Positions 481 through 53,696 of a stretch of DNA of 64,000 nucleotides are shown piece by piece. A program made the position numbers and the translations under genes. Position 1 is the first letter of the stretch. Every line of letters starts with the position of its first letter. The stretch covers positions 41,292,001-41,356,000 of the forward strand of contig OX597826.1 in assembly GCA_951406725.2 (NCBI GenBank), written 5' to 3'. The notes below the pieces were generated by a model that was not told the DNA's origin, did no database searches, and worked only from the letters and a program-made list of their open reading frames with translations. The stretch comes from Octopus vulgaris (lineage: Eukaryota).

Positions 481-2600
481 ATCATCATCATTTAGCGTCC
501 GTTTTCCATGCTAGCATGGGTTGGACGGTTCAACTGGGGTCTGTGAAGCTGGAAGGCTTCGTCAGGCCCAGTTAGATCTGGCAGTGTTTCTACGGCTGGA
601 TGCCCTTCCTAACGCCAACCACTCCGTGAGTGTAGTGGGTGTTTTTTACGTGCCACCTGCACAGGTGCCAGACAGAGCTGGCAAACGGCCACGAACGGAT
701 GGTACTTTTACGTGCCACCGACATGGGGCCAGACAGAGCTGGCAAACGGCCACGAACGGATGGTGCTTTTACGTGCCACCGACACGGGGCCAGACAAAGC
801 TGGCAAACGGCCACGAACGGACGGTGCTTTTACGTGTCACCGGCACGGGGGCCAGCCGAGGCTGGCAACGGACACGAACGTGTGGTGCTTTTATGAGCCA
901 CCGACACAGGGCCAGACAGAGCTGGCAAACGGCCACGAACGGACGGTGCTTTTACGTGTCACCGGCACGGGGGCCAGCCGAGGCTGGCAACGGACACGAA
1001 CGGATGGTGCTTTTACGTGCCACCGACACGGGGCCAGACAGAGCTGGCAAACAGCCACGAACGGACGGTGCTTTTACGTGTCACCGGCACGGGGGCCAGG
1101 CGAGGCTGGCAACAGACACGAACGGATGGTGCTTTTACGTGCCATTGACACGGGGGCCAGACAGAGCTGGCAAACGGCCACGAACGGATGGTGCTTTTAC
1201 GTGTCACCGGCACGGGGGCCAGGCGAGGCTGGCAACAGACACGAACGGATGGTGCTTTTACGTGCCATTGACACGGGGGCCAGACAGAGCTGGCAAACGG
1301 CCACGAACGGATGGTGCTTTTACGTGTCACCAGCACGGGCCAGGCGAGGCTGGCAATGGACACGAACGGATGGTGCTTTTACGTGCCACCGACATGGGGG
1401 CCAGACAGAGCTGGCAAACGGCCACGAGCGAATGGTGCTTTTACGTATCACCGACACGGGTGCCAGATGAGGCTGGCAGCGGACACGAACGGATGGTTCA
1501 CTTAACCCCTGCTTTCTGATATATAATTTGATTTTGATTGTTCTCACTGGTCTTGCCAGGTCTTCTGACGCACAGCATACTTCCATAGGTCTCGGTCTCT
1601 GGTCATTTCCTTGGTGAGACCTAGAGTTCGAAGGTCGTGCTTCACCACCTCGACCCAAGTTTTCCTGGGTCTACCTCTTCCACAGGTCCCCTCAACTGCC
1701 AGGGTGTGGCACTTTTTCACACACCTATCTTCATCCATTCTCACCACATGACCATACCAGCGCAATCGTCTCTCTTGCACACAACATCTGATGCCTCTTG
1801 GGTCCAACTTTTCTCTCAAGGTACTTACACTCTGTCGACTATGAACACTGACATTACACATCCAATGGAGCATACTAGCTTCATTTCTTGCGAGCTTACG
1901 CAAATCCTCAGCAGTCACAGCCCAAGTTTCACTACCATGTAGCATGGCTGTATGTACACATGCATCATACAGTCTGCCTTTTACTTTGAGCGAGAGGCCT
2001 TTTGTCACCAGCAGGGGTAAGAGCTCTCTAAACTTTGCCCAGGCTATTCTTACTCTAGCAGTTACACTTTCAGCACACCCGTCCCCGCTACTGACTTGGT
2101 CACCTAGGTAGCGGAAGCTATCAACTACTTCTAGTTTTTCTCCCTGAAACATGATAGAAGTTGGTCTCTGCATATTTTCAGAGTTTATTGCTCCTGAGCA
2201 TCTACCACAGATAAAAACTATTTTCCTAGTTAGTCTTCCTTTGACATTACTACATCTCTTATGTGTCCATAGCTTACATTTGGTGCATCTTATAGAGTTT
2301 CTACCTACGCCTTTTCTACAGATCGAGCAAGGCCATCTACCTGAAGGCGTTTGTGATTGGTCTACCTTCCTACTTATTAGGACTTTGGTTTTGGCTAGGT
2401 TGATTCTAAGGCCCTTCGATTCTAAACCTTGCTTCCACACCTGGAACTTCTCCTCCAGTTCTGATAGAGACTCAGCAATTAGAGCAAGGTCATCAGCATA
2501 GAGGAGCTCCCAGGGGCATCCAGTCTTGAATTCCTCCGTTATTGCCTGGAGGACTATGATAAATAGGAGGGGACTGAGGACTGAACCTTGGTGGACCCCA
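481..2600 (-). mobile_element. Young 5'-truncated RTE-clade LINE (RT C-half, 3'UTR, (GAT)n tail)
   Basis: Open frame 2599->1544: GVHQGSVLSPLLF...LLYADD...NLAKTKV...FRYLGD...RLRWYGHVVRM...GRGRPRKTW. 3'UTR carries the GGAAGGGCATCC motif and a trinucleotide tail. Confidence 0.92.
636..1497. repeat. GC-rich minisatellite (~59-60 bp unit, ~14-15 copies) inside the RTE 3'UTR
   Basis: Recurrent GGTGCTTTTACGTG(C/T)CACCG(A/G)CACGGGGGCCAG...CTGGCAA...CACGAACGGA. Two variants alternate. Confidence 0.93.
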
Positions 2601-2708
2601 TTAAAGAGGCAGTAAAACTAAAAAGTAATGAAGGCCCACATAAAAACACCAATATTTCTTCAACATTGCTGTTGCCTCATAAATAGCAAATATTTTACTG
2701 TTTGGTAT

Positions 2709-9369: not shown

Positions 9370-11950
9370 CAGTCAGAAATTTACAGGAAGTTTCTTCAGG
9401 ACAACCAGCTGAGGGTAATGGTGCAAATCTGTGGCTGGTACAAAGTTCTAGTCAAACCAAGAGTGATGCGTTGGTGGCACAGTGAGGTAGACAGAGCCAC
9501 AAATGCAAAGAGACAGGAACAGAAAAACTGGAAAAATGTAGCAAGTGGAGAATGATATCAGACAGCCAGAAGCAAGGCAACAGGTCTACCTAGGAAATGG
9601 AGAAGCAGAAAGTAAGAGGTTTACCTATGCTCTACAATGTGAGAATCAGAAGAAAGAGGAAGATGCCTTAGAGAGAAGAAATTACAGAACTATCAAATTA
9701 CTAGACTAGGACATGAAAGTAGCTCAAATAATTAGGAAGAGAATTAGACTAGATGAAATGCAGTTTGATTTTGTGCCTGGGAAAAGTACTACTAATGCCC
9801 TTTTTGTAGTAAGACAACTTCAAAAGAAGTATTTAATCAAAAGCAAGCCATTGTATTTGGCATTTGTTGACTAGGAGAAACTTTTGACAGAGTCCCTCGC
9901 TTTGTGATATGGTGGTCTCTGAGAAAGTTAGGGATAGATGAATGACTGGTGAAAGCCACACAAATGACAGACAGGGGCTGCTCTCAATAAGGTGAGTGTT
10001 AGCAATGAACTATATGTACAGGTTTGATTCTCAGTCCCTCTCCTCTATTTATCATAGTCCTCTAGGTGATAAGACAGGAATTTAAAACTAGGATGAAATG
10101 TAGTTTGGCTTCATCCCAGGGAGAAATACCGATGCTAAAAATAAACCATTATATTTCGCATTTGTTGATCCAGAGAAAACCTTCGATAGAGTACCCCACT
10201 CAGTGGGCTCTGAGGAGGCTAGAGAAAGCTGTACAAGCCACATACAGAGATGCTGTTGGTAAGGTGAGAGTTAATCATGAGAACAGTGAAGAATTTGGTG
10301 TACAGGTAAGGGTTCATCAAGGCTCAGTCCTCAGTCACCTCCTTTTCATCATTGTCCTCCAGACCATAACAGGAATTAGACTTGCAGCCCCTGGGAACTA
10401 CTATATGCTGATAATCTTACCCTCATAGCAGATTCCATATCAAAGCTAGAAAAGAAATTCCAGGTGTGGAAGCAAAACTTGGAGTTTAACGGTAACTTAG
10501 CAAAGACTAAGGTCTTAGTAAGCAAGAAATCCTCTTCATGTAGGTGCTCGATTTGTAGGAAAAGTGTAGGCAGGAACTCCATAAGGTGTACCCAACGTAA
10601 GCTATGGACATACAAGAGGTGCAATGGAATAATAGGAAGATTGTCAGAGAAAGTAGTGTTTATATGTGGAAGATGTACAGGATCCATAAAAATCACAGAT
10701 ACTTGGGAAATTGATTCTCTTAAATGCCCTGGTGGCTCATTAGAGATAGTAGATAATTTCTGCTACTTAGAGGACCAAATCAGTAATAGGGGAGGATGTA
10801 TAGAGAGTGTGATAGAATAAGAAAAGGATGGAGAAAATTCAGAGTGCTTTTACCTCTGTTAGCTACAAAAGGTTTCTCTCTTCGAGTGAAAGGAAGACTG
10901 TATGATGCATGTATACGGACAGCAATTCTACATAGTCGTGATACAAGGGCCCCGAATGCAGAGGACATGTGAAGGTTAGAAAGGAATGAGGATAGTATGT
11001 CCCACTAGATGTGCAATGTAAGTGTACATGTTCAACAGAGTGCTAGTGTATTGAGAGAGAAGTTAGGTATAAGAGGAATTGGTTGCTGTGTGCAAGAGAG
11101 AAGACTGCGCTGGTTTGGTCATATGATGCAAATAGATGTTGACAGGTCTATGAAGATCTGCTATGAAGTACTGAAGGACGACTTCAGGGTGATGAACCTT
11201 TCAGACAAGATGACAAAGGACAGAGATACCTGGCACCTCGCTATACTCAAGAAGACCCATGCAACATAGCGGAAGTGTTAAGGCCACTCCCCCTGGTGAA
11301 GAAGATTGGCCTGCAAGAGTCCTGTGCCAATGCCATGTAAAAAGCAGTTGTGCTGGTACCACATAGAAGCACTCATGTGGTGCCATATAAAAGCATCCAG
11401 CACACTCCGTAAAGTGTTAGGAAGGGCATCCAGCTTTAGAAACCACGCCAAATCAAACTGAAATCTGATGCAGCTCCCCAGCTTGCCAGCTCTGGTCAAA
11501 CCGTCCAACCCATGCCAGCATGGACAACAGATGTTAAATGATGATGATGATGATGATGATGCCCCTGGGAAGTACTATATGCAAATGATTTCATTTTTCT
11601 AATGGAATCTGTAATAGAATTAGAACAGAAATTCCAAGTGTTGATGCAAAACTGGGAATCAAAGGGCCTTAAAAGTTAAAGACCAAAGTTCTACTAAGCA
11701 GGAAAACAAACAGGACTACTCTCTTCTGGAAATAGCCCTCCTTGACATGGGAGAAAGGTGTAGGCAGAAATTCCATATGGTGTACCCAGTGCAAGCTATA
11801 AAAGCACAAGAGGTGCAATGGAATCGCAGGAAGGTTAATGGAGAAAGCAGACTTTGTCATCAGCATTATTGTTTATTGCATGAGCAATAAACAATAAGAA
11901 CAAATGAAAAATGAATTTTCTCAAAAGCCCCAAAGGTTCCATAGAGGCAG
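9370..11950 (+). mobile_element. Cluster of degraded RTE LINE fragments (RT segments repeated, 3'UTR ending ~11560)
   Basis: Stop- and frameshift-interrupted matches to the 481-2600 family (EMQFDFVPGKSTT, VHQGSVLS, YADN, CSICRKSVGRNSIRC, RRLRWFGH). Confidence 0.85.
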
Positions 11951-13009
11951 CAGATTCAAGAACCCCTTTGGTCATGAATGACCATGGAACTGCACCTAGA
12001 AAGTTACCCTCAAAGGCACAAGCTTGAGCAAGGTTGTTTATGGAAGAGCAACAGTCACCCATGCATACCAGCCTCTCCTCTCCACGTCAGTGATGTTATC
12101 CAAGGGAAAGGAAAAGGCTGATACAGCTTGGTGCCAGTGAAGTTACAACTCATTTCCATAGCTGAGTGAAGTGGAGCAGTGTGAAATAAAGTGTCTTGTT
12201 CAAGAACACAACATGCAGCTCTCCTGCTTGCTAGCTCTGGTCAAACTGTCCAACCCATTCCGACATGGAAAATGGACATTAAACTGATGATGACGACATA
12301 TATATATGTGTAAGTGTATACACACATGCACTGATGAGGTTCAGTAGACTGAAATCACATGAAATGGGAGTTCTAGCACCCATAAGAGATTATTCTTATA
12401 TTACAATTTACATACACACACATATACATGTATGTGTGTGTGTGTATATATATATATATCATCATTATCATCGGATAATGTTCACCCTCCATGTTGGCAT
12501 AGATTGGGCACTCTCTGTCTTTCTATACACACACAGAGAAAAAGTTAAATACAAATACTTATCTGTATGTTCAATGTTAGTGAGCATGGAGAACAAAGTA
12601 CAAATGTGCAGAGAGAAAAAATGGGAATACATTTCTGCCTCTTTCCAGATGGAAAAGTCCTGCATTTACTTCTTCAGCAAAGGACTTAGTATTGTCCTTC
12701 TATCATACTTTCATTTCCCTCATTACCATACTCCACTTAGTTGAGGGATCTTGTCTTGCAGGTACACGGCGATATCACCAGTGTTGGTGCCACAACCCCC
12801 ACCCCTAAAGTAAAACATTCAACACACTCTAAAGTGGTTGGTGTTAGGAAAAATATCCAGCTATAGAAACCATGCCAAAGCAGACTTTGGAGCTCAGTGC
12901 AGCCCTCTTTGTCAGTTCATGTTGATCCCACCAACACATGCCAGCAAAGAAAAAAATGACATTCAATGATGATGATATAAGCATACATATATACAAATAT
13001 ATATATATA

Positions 13010-17874: not shown

Positions 17875-17921
17875 ATGGAGGAAGACCACGCATACGACAC
17901 GCTTAGCTCTGGCTCTGAGAG
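17875..17921 (+). CDS. UCKL1: UCKL1 probable first coding exon (MEEDHAYDTLSSGSE-S)
   Basis: atcATGG context. Ends AG|gtaaaa in phase 2, matching the phase of the acceptor at 20671. The N-terminus is poorly conserved, so support is structural. Confidence 0.7.
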
Positions 17922-18371
17922 GTAAAACTACTCGTATCTTTTGACCAATATCAACATAGGTTACACATTAAGCACGTATATACACAAATGTGTGTGTATA
18001 TATATACATTTTCCCTCTCCATATTTTGATGAGGTTTTAGGCCAACAGATTTAAGGTTTAACGATGCACCGTAAGGCCCGAACCCTTATGGACTAGAAAC
18101 CCAGGGTAACCACATAAACCGGTCTCTCCCATTATAATGTTAACTGCTCTACATCTTAGAGTGTGCTTTTTCTCCAGATTTATTTTTTTCTACAAACGAT
18201 ATATGTATGTGTATATATATATATAAACAACTATATATATATATATAGGAGGAGAGTTCACGAAAAAAACAAAGGACGAAGACAGGTGGTGTAGAAAACA
18301 AACAGATGTATTAGTATAACGCTCAGGAATAGAAAAAAGTCTTTTACGTTTCCAGCCTACGCTCTTCTACA

Positions 18372-18432
<61 letters not shown>

Positions 18433-18435
<3 letters not shown>

Positions 18436-18678
18436 GAAAAAAGGTGTTCAGAATGCTGGATGGTTGTAAAAATATATATTTATTTACATATCACATATTA
18501 TTTCTTCATATTAGCGCTTTCAACTACTCCTGTAGTTTCATCAGAAAGATTTTCAGAAAATGTCTCTGATGAAACTACAGGAGTAGTTGAAAGCGCTAAT
18601 ATGAAGAAATAATATGTGATATGTAAATAAATATATATTTTTACAGCCATCCAGCATTCTGAACACTTTTTTTCTTTC
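18433..18678. repeat. Near-perfect long inverted repeat (~113-bp arms) containing a hammerhead core; probable inverted Penelope-like terminal repeat
   Basis: Arms are reverse complements with few mismatches and are flanked by (TA)n. CTGATGA-AACTAC/AGGA/GTAGTT-GAAA at 18566-18592. Confidence 0.8.
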
Positions 18679-18715
18679 ATATGTATTAAATCTGTACATC
18701 ACCCCCAATACTTCT

Positions 18716-18772
<57 letters not shown>

Positions 18773-20240: not shown

Positions 20241-20671
20241 ACTGTACAAGCTCTCTTTCCCTTGGCAAGGCAAACAAATCTTTTCAACTTTGCATCATCT
20301 TTACTCAAATTGCCAACAATTTTACAGAGTGCAGAAGCCCCATTGAAGTCACCTTGTCACTTGCATGATTAAAGAGCTTCCATCATTGAAAGGAAGACTA
20401 TAAGAGTGAGTGAGAGAGTGTGTGTACATAATATTAGAAGATCAGATATTGATGAGAGAGAGCGACATAAGACCTGGTTATTGAATAAATCATAGTATAT
20501 AACTGTGGCTTATTTTATAAAATGATATCTAGAGGAAGGAAAGTCAATGTTGTTTTTGGTAATCTTCAATTCTAGAACTGAGTTATTGAATTATATAATT
20601 CAGTAAAGCAAACTTTCTATCAGTTATTGATCTCCAATTCATTTTTCACATCTCACCCTTTAATATTGCAG

Positions 20672-45221: not shown

Positions 45222-45689
45222 AGCCCCTGTTCTGAGCATGACCCTGTTATAATAGGACAACCGTTGAAAGAGGGGCACCTGCCCTCATGGTCTGGGTGAT
45301 CCAGGTTATGTGACATTTTACACATGTGTAGACATATCCAAATACGTACATACGTGCATACATACATGATGGCTGACTCCTCGTATCTGAGAAAGACCAT
45401 CACTGACCATTGCCCATGCAAAATGTTAGCAATCCCTATGCATGAGGTTATTGCACCCACAGTTTGCTTCACCTGTGTTTGCATCTGCAGCTGGTACCCT
45501 CTTACTTGACCAGGCATCGGAAATTCACCTCACTGGCAATTGCGCAGCCTAAAATTTTACGTCCAATAATGCATGCACAACACCTCACAAACCCTTTCCA
45601 CTTTATTGACATGATCTAGAGACAAGCCAGGGCAAGATACTCAGTGCCAGGTCACAGGCTTAGGAGTGTGACAGCACCATGATCTCAAA

Positions 45690-46930
45690 TGCAAGCAAAC
45701 AAATCCCCAATGACTGGCGTAGTAGCACCATAGCCAACTGCTATAAAAGTAAAGGTAATGCCTTAGATAGAAATAATTATAGAGGTATCAAATTGTTGGA
45801 TCAGGTGATGAAAGTTGCAGGGAGAGTCATAGCCCAACTAATTAGGGAGAGAGTTTGTCTAGATGAGATGCAGTTTGGTTTTGTGCCAGGTAGAAGCACC
45901 ATTGATGCTATATTTCTGGTAAAGCAACCGCAGGAGTAATACCTAGCCAAAGATAAACATCTGTACTTGGCTTTTGTTGATTTGGAGAAAGCTTTTGACA
46001 GAGTCCCCTGATCCCTTATCTGGTGGTCAATGCAGAAACTAGGAATAGACAAGTGATTGGTGAGAGCTGTACAAGCTTTGTACAGGGACACTCTCAGTAA
46101 AGTGAGGATGGGCAATGAGTACAGCAAAGAATTCAGGGTATAAGTAGGGGTTCCCCAAGGATCGGTGCTCAGACCCCCTTGTTCATCATAGTCTTCCAGG
46201 CAATAACAGAAGAATTCAAGACAAGATGCCCCTAGGAGCTCCTTTATGCTGATGATCTTGCTCTTATAGCTGAATCACTACCTGAACTGGAGAAGTTCCA
46301 GGGAAGGAAGCAAGGTCTAGAATCAAAGGGCCTTAAAGTTAACCTAGCAAAAACCAAAGTTATAGTAAGTAGGAAAGCAGACAAATCACAAATCCCTTCA
46401 GGTAGATGATCCTGCTCAATCTGTAGAAAAGGTGTAGATAGAAGCTCTATAAGATGCACCTAGTGTAAGCTTTGGACACCTAAAAGCTGCTACATCAGAG
46501 GAAGGTTAATAGGTAAACAAACTTTTGTGTGTGGAAGATGCACTGGTACAGTAAGCACTGGAAATGCACAGGGAATAAACTCCATCAACTACCAGTGGGG
46601 CAAGCTAGAGGTAGTAGGTGACCAAGTTAGTAGTGGAGGTGGAAGCTCCTAGAGTGTAGCTGTGTAAATAAGATTAGGCTTTCTCAGAGTGAAAGACAAA
46701 TTGTTTGATGCCTGTGTGCAAACAGCTATGATGCATAGCAGTGAAATATGAGCTGTGTTAGCCGAGGATATGCGTAGGCTTGAAAGAAATGAAACCAGTA
46801 TACTTCACTAGATGTGCAATGTCAGTGTGCATGTTTGACAGAGAGTAAGCATCTTGAGAGAAAAGTTAGACATAAGCGGAATCAGATGTGTGCAAGAGAG
46901 ACAACTACGCTGGTATGGTCATGTGATGTG
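45690..46930 (+). mobile_element. Degraded RTE LINE RT region
   Basis: IPNDWRSSTIANCYKSKGNALDRNNYRGIKLL...EMQFGFVPGRSTIDAIF...FVDLEKAFDRVP...LYADD, with many stops. Confidence 0.9.
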
Positions 46931-52269: not shown

Positions 52270-53696
52270 GCTGTCATTTTCCTCAAGTTCCTGGAATTCA
52301 TCAGCTTCCTTGCATTCCTCAGAGGAGTTGTTGTTTTCAGAATCAGATGTGTCATTATTGTTATATAAAAAAAATCATCTTCAGTGCCATCTAGGGTTCT
52401 GCTGATACCACATTTTTTGAAATCGTTTATAATTATTTCAGTGTTTTACTGCTTCCTGTGAATTTTTCACCCACTGGGCTACCTGAAAAAATGTTGGCTT
52501 CTTCATACAGCATGCTGGTGTCAGTTCATGTTGCAGGACCTGCATCCAGTTATCCCACTCCTCTCTCATGTGTCCCTTGAAAGACTTGTTTATCAAGGGG
52601 TTGTAATTGGAAAGTCAATCCACCAGGTATGACAGCTAGTTCTGTGTTGAAGTTCTTTGCCCTCCTTACTGTACTCTCAGTTGCATGTGCATGAAATTGG
52701 TCCCAAACTAGAAGGGATGGTGTTTTGCATAAAGTACCAGGGCGCCTTGACCGTACTTTTTCTAACAATAACTTTATGCCATTTTCGTCCATCCACCCCT
52801 TAGGGTGGATGTGAAGAACAACTCCTGTTGGAAAATGGTCCTTTGAAAGTGATTTTCTTTTAAATATTAAAAGTGGTAGTAGTTTCGTGCCATCTGCGCA
52901 ACATGCCAATATTATGGTGTGTTGTATTTTTCATGTCCTGTTTTAATAGTAACTGTTTTACTACCTTTATAGTCCTGTTTGAGGGAATATCAAATATCAG
53001 TAGCACCTTGTCCATATTTGCAATATGACACAGTTCGTAGTTACTGTGTTGTCTTGCATGTATCACAGGACAGTGAAATTCCAGTATCTTGTTTCCATAT
53101 TCTTCTGGCATTTTCTGCACTATCCTTGTTTTCACACACAACACCAATTCGTTTCTTTTCATGAAACGAAAACACCGGCTTGCACAGCTACTGAAATCAT
53201 AATCACCTCTTGCAGCTGCCGTAACTTCAGCTTGAAAAATTATGGCTTTGGTTGACACAACTATACCTTTGTTCTGGTTATCTGTAACCCAGGTTTTCAA
53301 CTCATTTTCAAGCTCAGGTCATTTGCATTTGGTTTCCACAGGTCATGGCTTCCATTTTTCAGCCTGTTGTTGTTCATCCTCCTATTTTCTCTATATCCGT
53401 ACCATTTTATCCATTGGACGTGGTCCAAAATGTCTAGCAGCCACTCTGTTACTGTGTTTCTTGGCATATGCTATCACTTGCAATTTGTAGCCAATAGTTT
53501 ATCTATGCCTTTTCTTGTGACTACATTCTATTAGGGTATTGATAATTTGAAAATTTAAAAAAGTGAATATTAGTAACATAAAGTGGGGGGCAAAAGGTAT
53601 TGTTATACACTATTACCATACAGTAATCTAGAAATATGTTTGTTCACTTCACTGAATGATAATATTTGCCCCATTATATGTTACTGATATTTACGG
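52270..53696 (-). pseudogene. Decayed pogo-family (POGK-like) DDE transposase: Brinker-type DBD, HTH_CENPB, DDE_1
   Basis: YKLQVIAYAKKHSNRVAARHFG; PELENELKTWV; IANMDK; ACCADGTKLLPLLIFKRK; KGWMDE; LLVWDQFHAH; IPGGLTFQLQPLD; FKKCGIS..LDGTEDD. Multiple stops and frameshifts. TA-CCGTAAAT terminus at 53696. Confidence 0.9.

Follow-up and report, generated by a model that had tools for sequence, protein, structure and literature searches.

Two truncated Penelope-like element ends with a hammerhead motif, probably joined head to head in one insertion, in a UCKL1 intron of Octopus vulgaris

The Locus in UCKL1

The window, the whole stretch of 64,000 nucleotides from Octopus vulgaris that was analysed, contains UCKL1 on the forward strand. 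The first coding exon was translated to MEEDHAYDTLSSGSE, and the N-terminus of Argonauta UCKL1 (P0001; the Argonauta match showed 71% identity) has exactly this sequence; the downstream exons matched the uridine kinase and UPRTase families. The hairpin had been assigned to a UCKL1 intron in an earlier note on this DNA, and it was indeed found in the first coding intron, which runs from GT at 17922 to AG at 20671; the donor is 510 nt away from it and the acceptor about 1950 nt. Positions within the repeat are numbered relative to the predicted cut after CUA (18598), 0 being the first base past the cut. The features are as follows.

17875..17921, +, UCKL1 first coding exon
18374..18432, no strand, left (TA)n target tract (sequence and inverted-repeat search)
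18433..18547, −, left arm, a pLTR stump with its 5′ start at −36, a short 3′ end (about +82) and no tail
18512..18544, −, left-arm hammerhead core, stem II and AGCGCU palindrome, antisense to UCKL1
18548..18564, no strand, 17-nt junction filler, read directly from the sequence; its minus strand opens with a slightly altered version of the GACATTTCTGA at which the element itself starts
18565..18680, +, right arm, a pLTR stump that begins 5′ at −34 and is counted here as far as the short end; it departs from the family majority at 2 places
18566..18598, +, minimal type I hammerhead (CUGAUGA, 6-bp stem II, GAAA, palindromic AGCGCU), predicted cut after 18598
18681..18718, +, 38-nt "tail", right arm only, which continues into ORF1 in the full element
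18719..18767, no strand, right (TA)n target tract (sequence and inverted-repeat search)

The motif lies where the note had placed it, with CTGATGA at 18566–72, stem II (AACTAC/AGGA/GTAGTT) at 18573–88, GAAA at 18589–92 and GCGCTA at 18593–98, and it is also encoded on the minus strand of the left arm (18544–18518). The inverted arms were confirmed at 131 nt and 95% complementarity, some TA and loop bases being counted in. The hairpin RNA was predicted to fold with −190.6 kcal/mol (z = −34.7), and none of 200 shuffles folded equally well. Because the right arm bears a tail that is missing on the left arm, the element was found to end at 18718, beyond the limit previously given. The target-site duplication is unreadable at this insertion, since both ends sit in (TA)n.

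The Hammerhead Motif and Its Predicted Masking

The hammerhead core CUGANGA..GAAA..UH was present, and the core, stem II and the AGCGCU palindrome were intact in both window arms. Core bases were 89–100% kept across the arms of the family, and a general hammerhead core pattern gave 223 matches, with none for the control. Homologues were found to keep the core together with a covarying stem II, which was 68% paired over 17 loci with many two-sided changes. Covariation of the whole structure was 0.413 versus 0.190 (0 of 500 shuffles) at these 17 loci, two of the window's family and 15 of related families, all single decayed copies picked by the core pattern and not by the stem. In the predicted dimer fold, AGCGCU pairs between two molecules (−20.7 kcal/mol). 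Core, family link, covariation and dimer fold thus agree with the earlier identification of a minimal type I hammerhead with a palindromic stem III from a Penelope-like terminal repeat. An Rfam search (E ≤ 10) gave no hammerhead match; its 41 matches were all under the gathering scores and mostly to miRNA hairpin models, and an identity as a miRNA precursor was rejected at a best score of 56.6 bits against a gathering threshold of 95. Dimer cleavage is reportedly the subject of Lunse et al. 2017.

Minimal type I hammerheads of metazoan Penelope-like elements (PLEs), as described in the accessible text of PMC4209133, likewise have a CUGANGA core, a long stem II, a stem I that is short and weak, and a small palindromic stem III. 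In contrast to these, stem II here closes with A-U and not with the usual G10.1-C11.1 pair after an unpaired base; in the same text this pair is a common but not a defining hammerhead trait. Dual hammerhead motifs on opposite strands, 100–700 bp apart, are described there for Schistosoma.

Stem I is imperfect, as had been noticed, with two Watson-Crick and two G-U pairs in the right arm of the window and two plus one in the left. The family-type stem I, which is stronger than that of the window, has four of five positions paired and a U-U mismatch. Across the 17 loci stem I was 48% paired, and it appeared in no minimum-energy fold.

In the UCKL1 pre-mRNA the antisense arm is transcribed first, and the ribozyme is therefore predicted to be locked in a duplex of about 113 bp. 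This agrees with the proposal that it is paired with its own antisense copy, the predicted probability of stem II in the full hairpin being 0.0. Such minimal motifs are described, in the part of PMC4209133 at hand, as having low activity and as acting only as dimers. Being masked, weak in stem I and of this low-activity type, the window copy is very likely silent according to these models. The idea of a purposeful self-masked ribozyme was not supported, as the same geometry recurs in 45 pairs as a by-product of insertion.

The Repeat Family and Its Parent Element

The arm was shown to be multicopy, with 158 matches to an exact 23-mer (control 0) and at least 61 matches in a search with one arm (40 of 283 candidates scored). 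From 193 distinct arms collected, 177 were kept at ≥82% mid-arm identity and 16 below this value were dropped. The median divergence from the majority base was 3.6% (152 arms), and the window arms had two changes each.

Some arms extend upstream into a common UTR, and a search with this UTR gave 47 matches. The genome-wide arm search proposed earlier did reveal a link to RT and GIY-YIG frames: the order RT, GIY-YIG, about 1.2 kb of UTR and arm was found at seven places at least. No parent ORFs were seen within 1.5 kb of the first 30 loci among the matches listed. A nearly full copy, L135 (G000:C10, about 117390460–117396634, minus strand), reads arm, tail, ORF1, RT, EN, UTR and arm, with the pLTR present as a direct repeat flanking the ORF. 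All frames seen in the same family were broken; L126 contains a GIY-YIG domain over the Pfam cut-off, and L093 contains RT motifs and RVT_1 below the cut-off. In the related L239 two frames of 557 and 775 aa are intact, and RVT_1 and GIY-YIG both exceed the cut-off in the second one. Taken together, the window hairpin is almost certainly a pair of PLE stumps, that is, two 5′-truncated 3′ ends (pLTRs).

The linker that joins RT to EN follows CX4CxxC (CGDKSCGTC in L128, CGDKSCRRC in L126), and a CPNC..H..H pattern was read in EN by eye. A CX2-5CxxC linker between RT and EN and a CCHH in EN are traits of Neptune and Nematis according to the available text of PMC8557442. The linker alone fits either group; from linker and TA targeting together we lean towards a Neptune-like parent.

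The youngest intact PLE family detected (L081–L092, e.g., G000:C16:20838796), with many intact 781-aa frames containing RT and GIY-YIG, was rejected as the parent, as its UTR is different and its RT about 45% identical. A core pattern search found no canonical hammerhead near these frames. In several elements (L239:3498–3585, L135, L086, L240) the ORF1 and RT frames overlap, with a −1 phase shift, at a TTTTTTA site. This site is kept in three PLE families and likely reflects ribosomal frameshifting, judging from the frames. An optional ORF1 of this kind is named in the Figure 1 legend of PMC8557442, as far as the accessible text goes. Four arms (L101, L102 and L104 on G000:C29, and L107 on C25) are broken at one common place by a tRNA-like repeat of about 310 nt, and were therefore copied after that insertion.

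Ends of the Arms and Head-to-Head Pairs

The 3′ ends of the 177 arms fell into two classes, at +82 in 93 arms and at +120 in 81; two of the remaining arms continue into the body and one ends elsewhere. Most short or long arms (161/174) terminate in a TA/CA repeat. Ninety arms form head-to-head pairs, and the other 87 are solo or joined to UTR and ORF. In 44 of the 45 pairs, a count that includes two pairs duplicating each other, one long end is combined with one short end, where about half would be expected. This rule constrains the enzyme's handling of the two target strands. Either arm of a pair can be the more truncated one.

The spacing at the junction between paired arms ranges from −7 to +190 nt, and at many junctions (gap −7 to 0) the two arms share a short palindrome. 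There is therefore no single spreading hairpin, and with only one hairpin found copied whole, the earlier suggestion of a small fold-back element family was not upheld. No tandem arrays were seen among the arms collected. Paired arms have 24 non-majority bases in common, compared to a mean of 10.8 and a maximum of 29 in 500 draws of random arms, and this excess is as readily explained by one template as by a fold-back copy. In one pair the filler is 186 nt of host DNA (L058:1236–1423), which matches a sequence on C9 without arms (L273, G000:C9:95047912–95048097) and is also present in probable RNA contigs.

The 5′ ends were studied in 100 arms picked regardless of their 5′ end (those listed among the 158 exact 23-mer matches, C1–C13). 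Thirty-two start at −40 to −32, corresponding to 3.6 starts per position versus 0.61 downstream and 0.10 upstream, and both window arms (−36 and −34) fall into this class. A TATAAATA box starts 33–37 nt ahead of C3 in all five copies checked, about 31 nt before the A at −37, and TATAAAA is found at a like distance in three related families. From these positions we infer that the pile-up reflects run-off at a TATA-driven transcript start; it could also arise from RT stalling at the ribozyme or from pairing with the partner arm. Whether cap copying had left an additional G at the 5′ junctions was judged by eye, but the partner arm confounded the reading and the idea was dropped.

Signs of Ribozyme Cutting in the Parent Element

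A search with the start of the body gave six same-family matches among 23, which represent five insertions. One begins inside the body, L236 holds only part of the tail, and the remaining three have the cut site as their start. In L135 the start falls at 0 to +4 (TA ambiguity), L234 reads 11 nt, 0–465 and 0–82 with one junction occurring twice, and in L235 both arms show a 291-to-0 junction. Searching with a pattern for starts at 0 yielded 13 matches, of which five were true starts in four insertions (one ambiguous) and eight were point changes, compared to four matches and one true start for a control pattern at +5; the test was chosen after L135 had been seen, and the numbers are small. Against cutting, most arms hold an uncut ribozyme, and related families (L237–L240) keep the motif upstream of the body. 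A general 5′-end spike at the cut site looked significant in the pooled arms (6/177) but was rejected, because only 2 of the 100 arms in the unbiased subset start at 0; the signal is restricted to body-carrying insertions.

These starts suggest that the ribozyme of the parent element likely cuts, as a dimer or with the help of protein. A circular template and a repeated template jump would explain the repeated junction equally well. For PLE hammerheads in general, the accessible part of PMC4209133 describes in vivo evidence as absent and puts forward circular templates, and the RNA-seq of the Anolis Poseidon element PAc showed no RNA ends at the cut site according to the portion of PMC11167929 at hand; in contrast to PAc, three insertions here start there. 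Insertions with cut-site starts and repeated junctions make the role of the PLE hammerhead testable.

Probable A-to-I Editing of Sister Hairpins

The suggestion that the hairpin is an ADAR substrate was supported for sister hairpins, in which clustered A>G changes were found in probable RNA contigs of two studies, but not for the window copy itself, as no contig in four runs spanned its junction (18540–18560). In run X1, whose kind was guessed, a sister arm differed at 24 places, of which 13 were A>G and seven T>C besides others; in run X5 from another study, likewise of guessed kind and with contig depths of 2–4, 18 of 20 differing places were A>G. The corresponding values were 2/4 in run X4 and 0/2 in run X15, which we took to be DNA given its size and depth. 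An X1 contig of depth 27 had 20 changes in 138 nt, and its flank matched only the C20 locus L016 among 273 loci. The host belongs to an animal group known for heavy A-to-I editing. Head-to-head stumps create long intronic duplexes, and judging from these changes such hairpins are likely heavily edited. The window duplex of about 113 bp is, as modelled, a likely ADAR substrate in the UCKL1 pre-mRNA.

A genomic hairpin on C7 (L046) carries six A>G in one arm and, in its partner, eight T>C; read on a single strand, all of them are A>G. These 14 changes are confined to the arms, and no other of the 177 arms has more than four. Compared to its twin on C8, it differs at one place in the 186-nt loop, only in a TA tract in the right flank and by about 5% in the left flank. 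A 5′ G was present at 0 of the 14 changed sites versus 10 of 76 A sites, counts too few to test; the trend is in the direction of ADAR, which tends to disfavour a 5′ G next to the edited A. Four of these T>C changes were also found in an X15 contig at depth 51, which makes an assembly artefact unlikely. One edited copy seems to have become fixed in DNA, to judge from the pattern of changes.

Proposed Formation of the Pair

The layout, the tail and the minimal hammerhead are already in print. Insertion units of EN+ PLEs, in the available text of PMC8557442 and PMC3846280, have the same head-to-head inverted 5′-truncated pLTR, one-sided tail (30–40 bp there, 38 nt here), microsatellite target and putative TATA in the pLTR; here, by contrast, both partners are only 115–155 nt without an ORF, and the long/short split was counted. 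PAc, as described in the accessible part of PMC11167929, likewise has a hammerhead close to where pLTR and ORF meet, a tail delimited by two 3′ ends and an AT-rich target, and the short end lies about 112 nt past the AUG of CUGAUGA here and 111–118 nt from the start codon there. Unlike in PAc, the element here has a Cys-rich linker (Neptune or Nematis type) and a separate ORF1, and the frame opened by the core AUG meets a stop after five codons. Animal non-LTR retrozymes, in the portion of bioRxiv 10.64898/2026.07.22.740005 at hand, share the type I hammerhead, the PLE pLTR origin and the non-coding nature, but consist of head-to-tail tandem units and not of an inverted pair; identity with them was rejected, as no head-to-tail tandem hammerhead units were found at the arm loci. 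A search of mainly openly accessible main texts gave no report of this PLE family, of genomic PLE copies that begin at the cut site or of retro-copies bearing edits.

Our main reading, with a probability of roughly 0.8, is that two 5′-truncated PLE 3′ ends, placed head to head in a (TA)n tract and likely joined during a single insertion event, make up the hairpin, and that the hammerhead is likely an inactive passenger here. The element's enzyme would nick both strands of the TA tract, and each nick would prime reverse transcription inside the pLTR RNA, one at +82 and the other at +120 from the cut site. Both cDNAs would run off the RNA 5′ end, likely at the TATA-driven start 0–7 nt ahead of CUGAUGA, and would then be joined by microhomology or filler. 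For the anole element in vitro, the part of PMC11167929 at hand describes two RT start sites that bound the tail, with both strands nicked and extended. We moderately favour such two-strand priming as the source of the pair. A wider account, to which we give slightly less than even odds, would add that the hammerhead cuts in vivo after CUA, that the cut RNA serves as template as a circle or by template jump, that every insertion draws on a long and a short RT start, each on its own strand, and that the stump hairpins are hyper-edited by ADAR and edited hairpin RNA is written back.

Alternatively, one arm of the same element may have been copied from the other by self-priming or fold-back synthesis, as put forward on an antisense template in the accessible text of PMC3846280, with endonuclease trimming of one end as the source of the one-sided tail (PMC8557442, available part). 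The many junctions that overlap in a short palindrome, the unusual junction common to both L235 arms and the excess of variants common to pair partners would fit such copying. We nevertheless consider it rather unlikely, as the more truncated arm can be either one, filler reaches 190 nt and is in one case host DNA also found on C9, and both ends match the two RT start sites of the anole system (PMC11167929, as far as available); in addition, the L058 arms differ at both common subfamily sites (+8 and +67), which in this single case suggests two templates. A non-autonomous MITE-like or retrozyme-like fold-back element that spreads as a whole hairpin is extremely improbable, even with 90 of the 177 arms in head-to-head pairs and one hairpin present twice, on C8 and C7: junctions and 5′ starts vary among the pairs, the ends are asymmetric, and the remaining arms stand alone or attached to UTR and ORF, with no tandem arrays seen. 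Fold-back DNA elements such as MITEs have symmetric terminal inverted repeats and an interior common to their copies, and the arm family has neither (45 pairs compared).

A switch adopted by the host, in which the masked intronic ribozyme or the edited duplex would control UCKL1 splicing or level, could draw on the position of the element in the sense strand of the intron and on the hyper-edited look of the sister hairpins. It is very unlikely, since the window copy is young (each arm is two changes away from the majority), both arms have a damaged stem I, no second sense ribozyme adjoins for a dimer, and the insertion lies 510 nt away from the splice donor and about 1950 nt away from the acceptor. 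The window locus is best regarded as an ordinary dead insertion of two PLE ends, and nothing points to a function for the host.

Related Motifs and Other Features in the Window

A second repeat stump (18243–18373, minus strand), of which seven other copies were present among the loci collected, adjoins the TA tract on the left; GAGC-GTAG-GCT(C/G)-GAAAC is read first in it and CTGAG further on. In related families whose frames are intact (L218–L220, L239, L240), the core is non-canonical, TTGATTTGA..GAAAGCGCTA or GCAAGCGCTA, and is kept upstream of the body. The CTGATGAG..GAAA pattern at 12331–12364 had a single copy among the loci collected and is probably a chance match (13 matches in the window versus 4.1 expected). 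Fragments of non-LTR RT frames were found at 1544–2617 (minus strand), 10066–11269 and 45664–46274, which we take by eye to be RTE-like, and 52550–53318 may represent a remnant of a pogo-like transposase.
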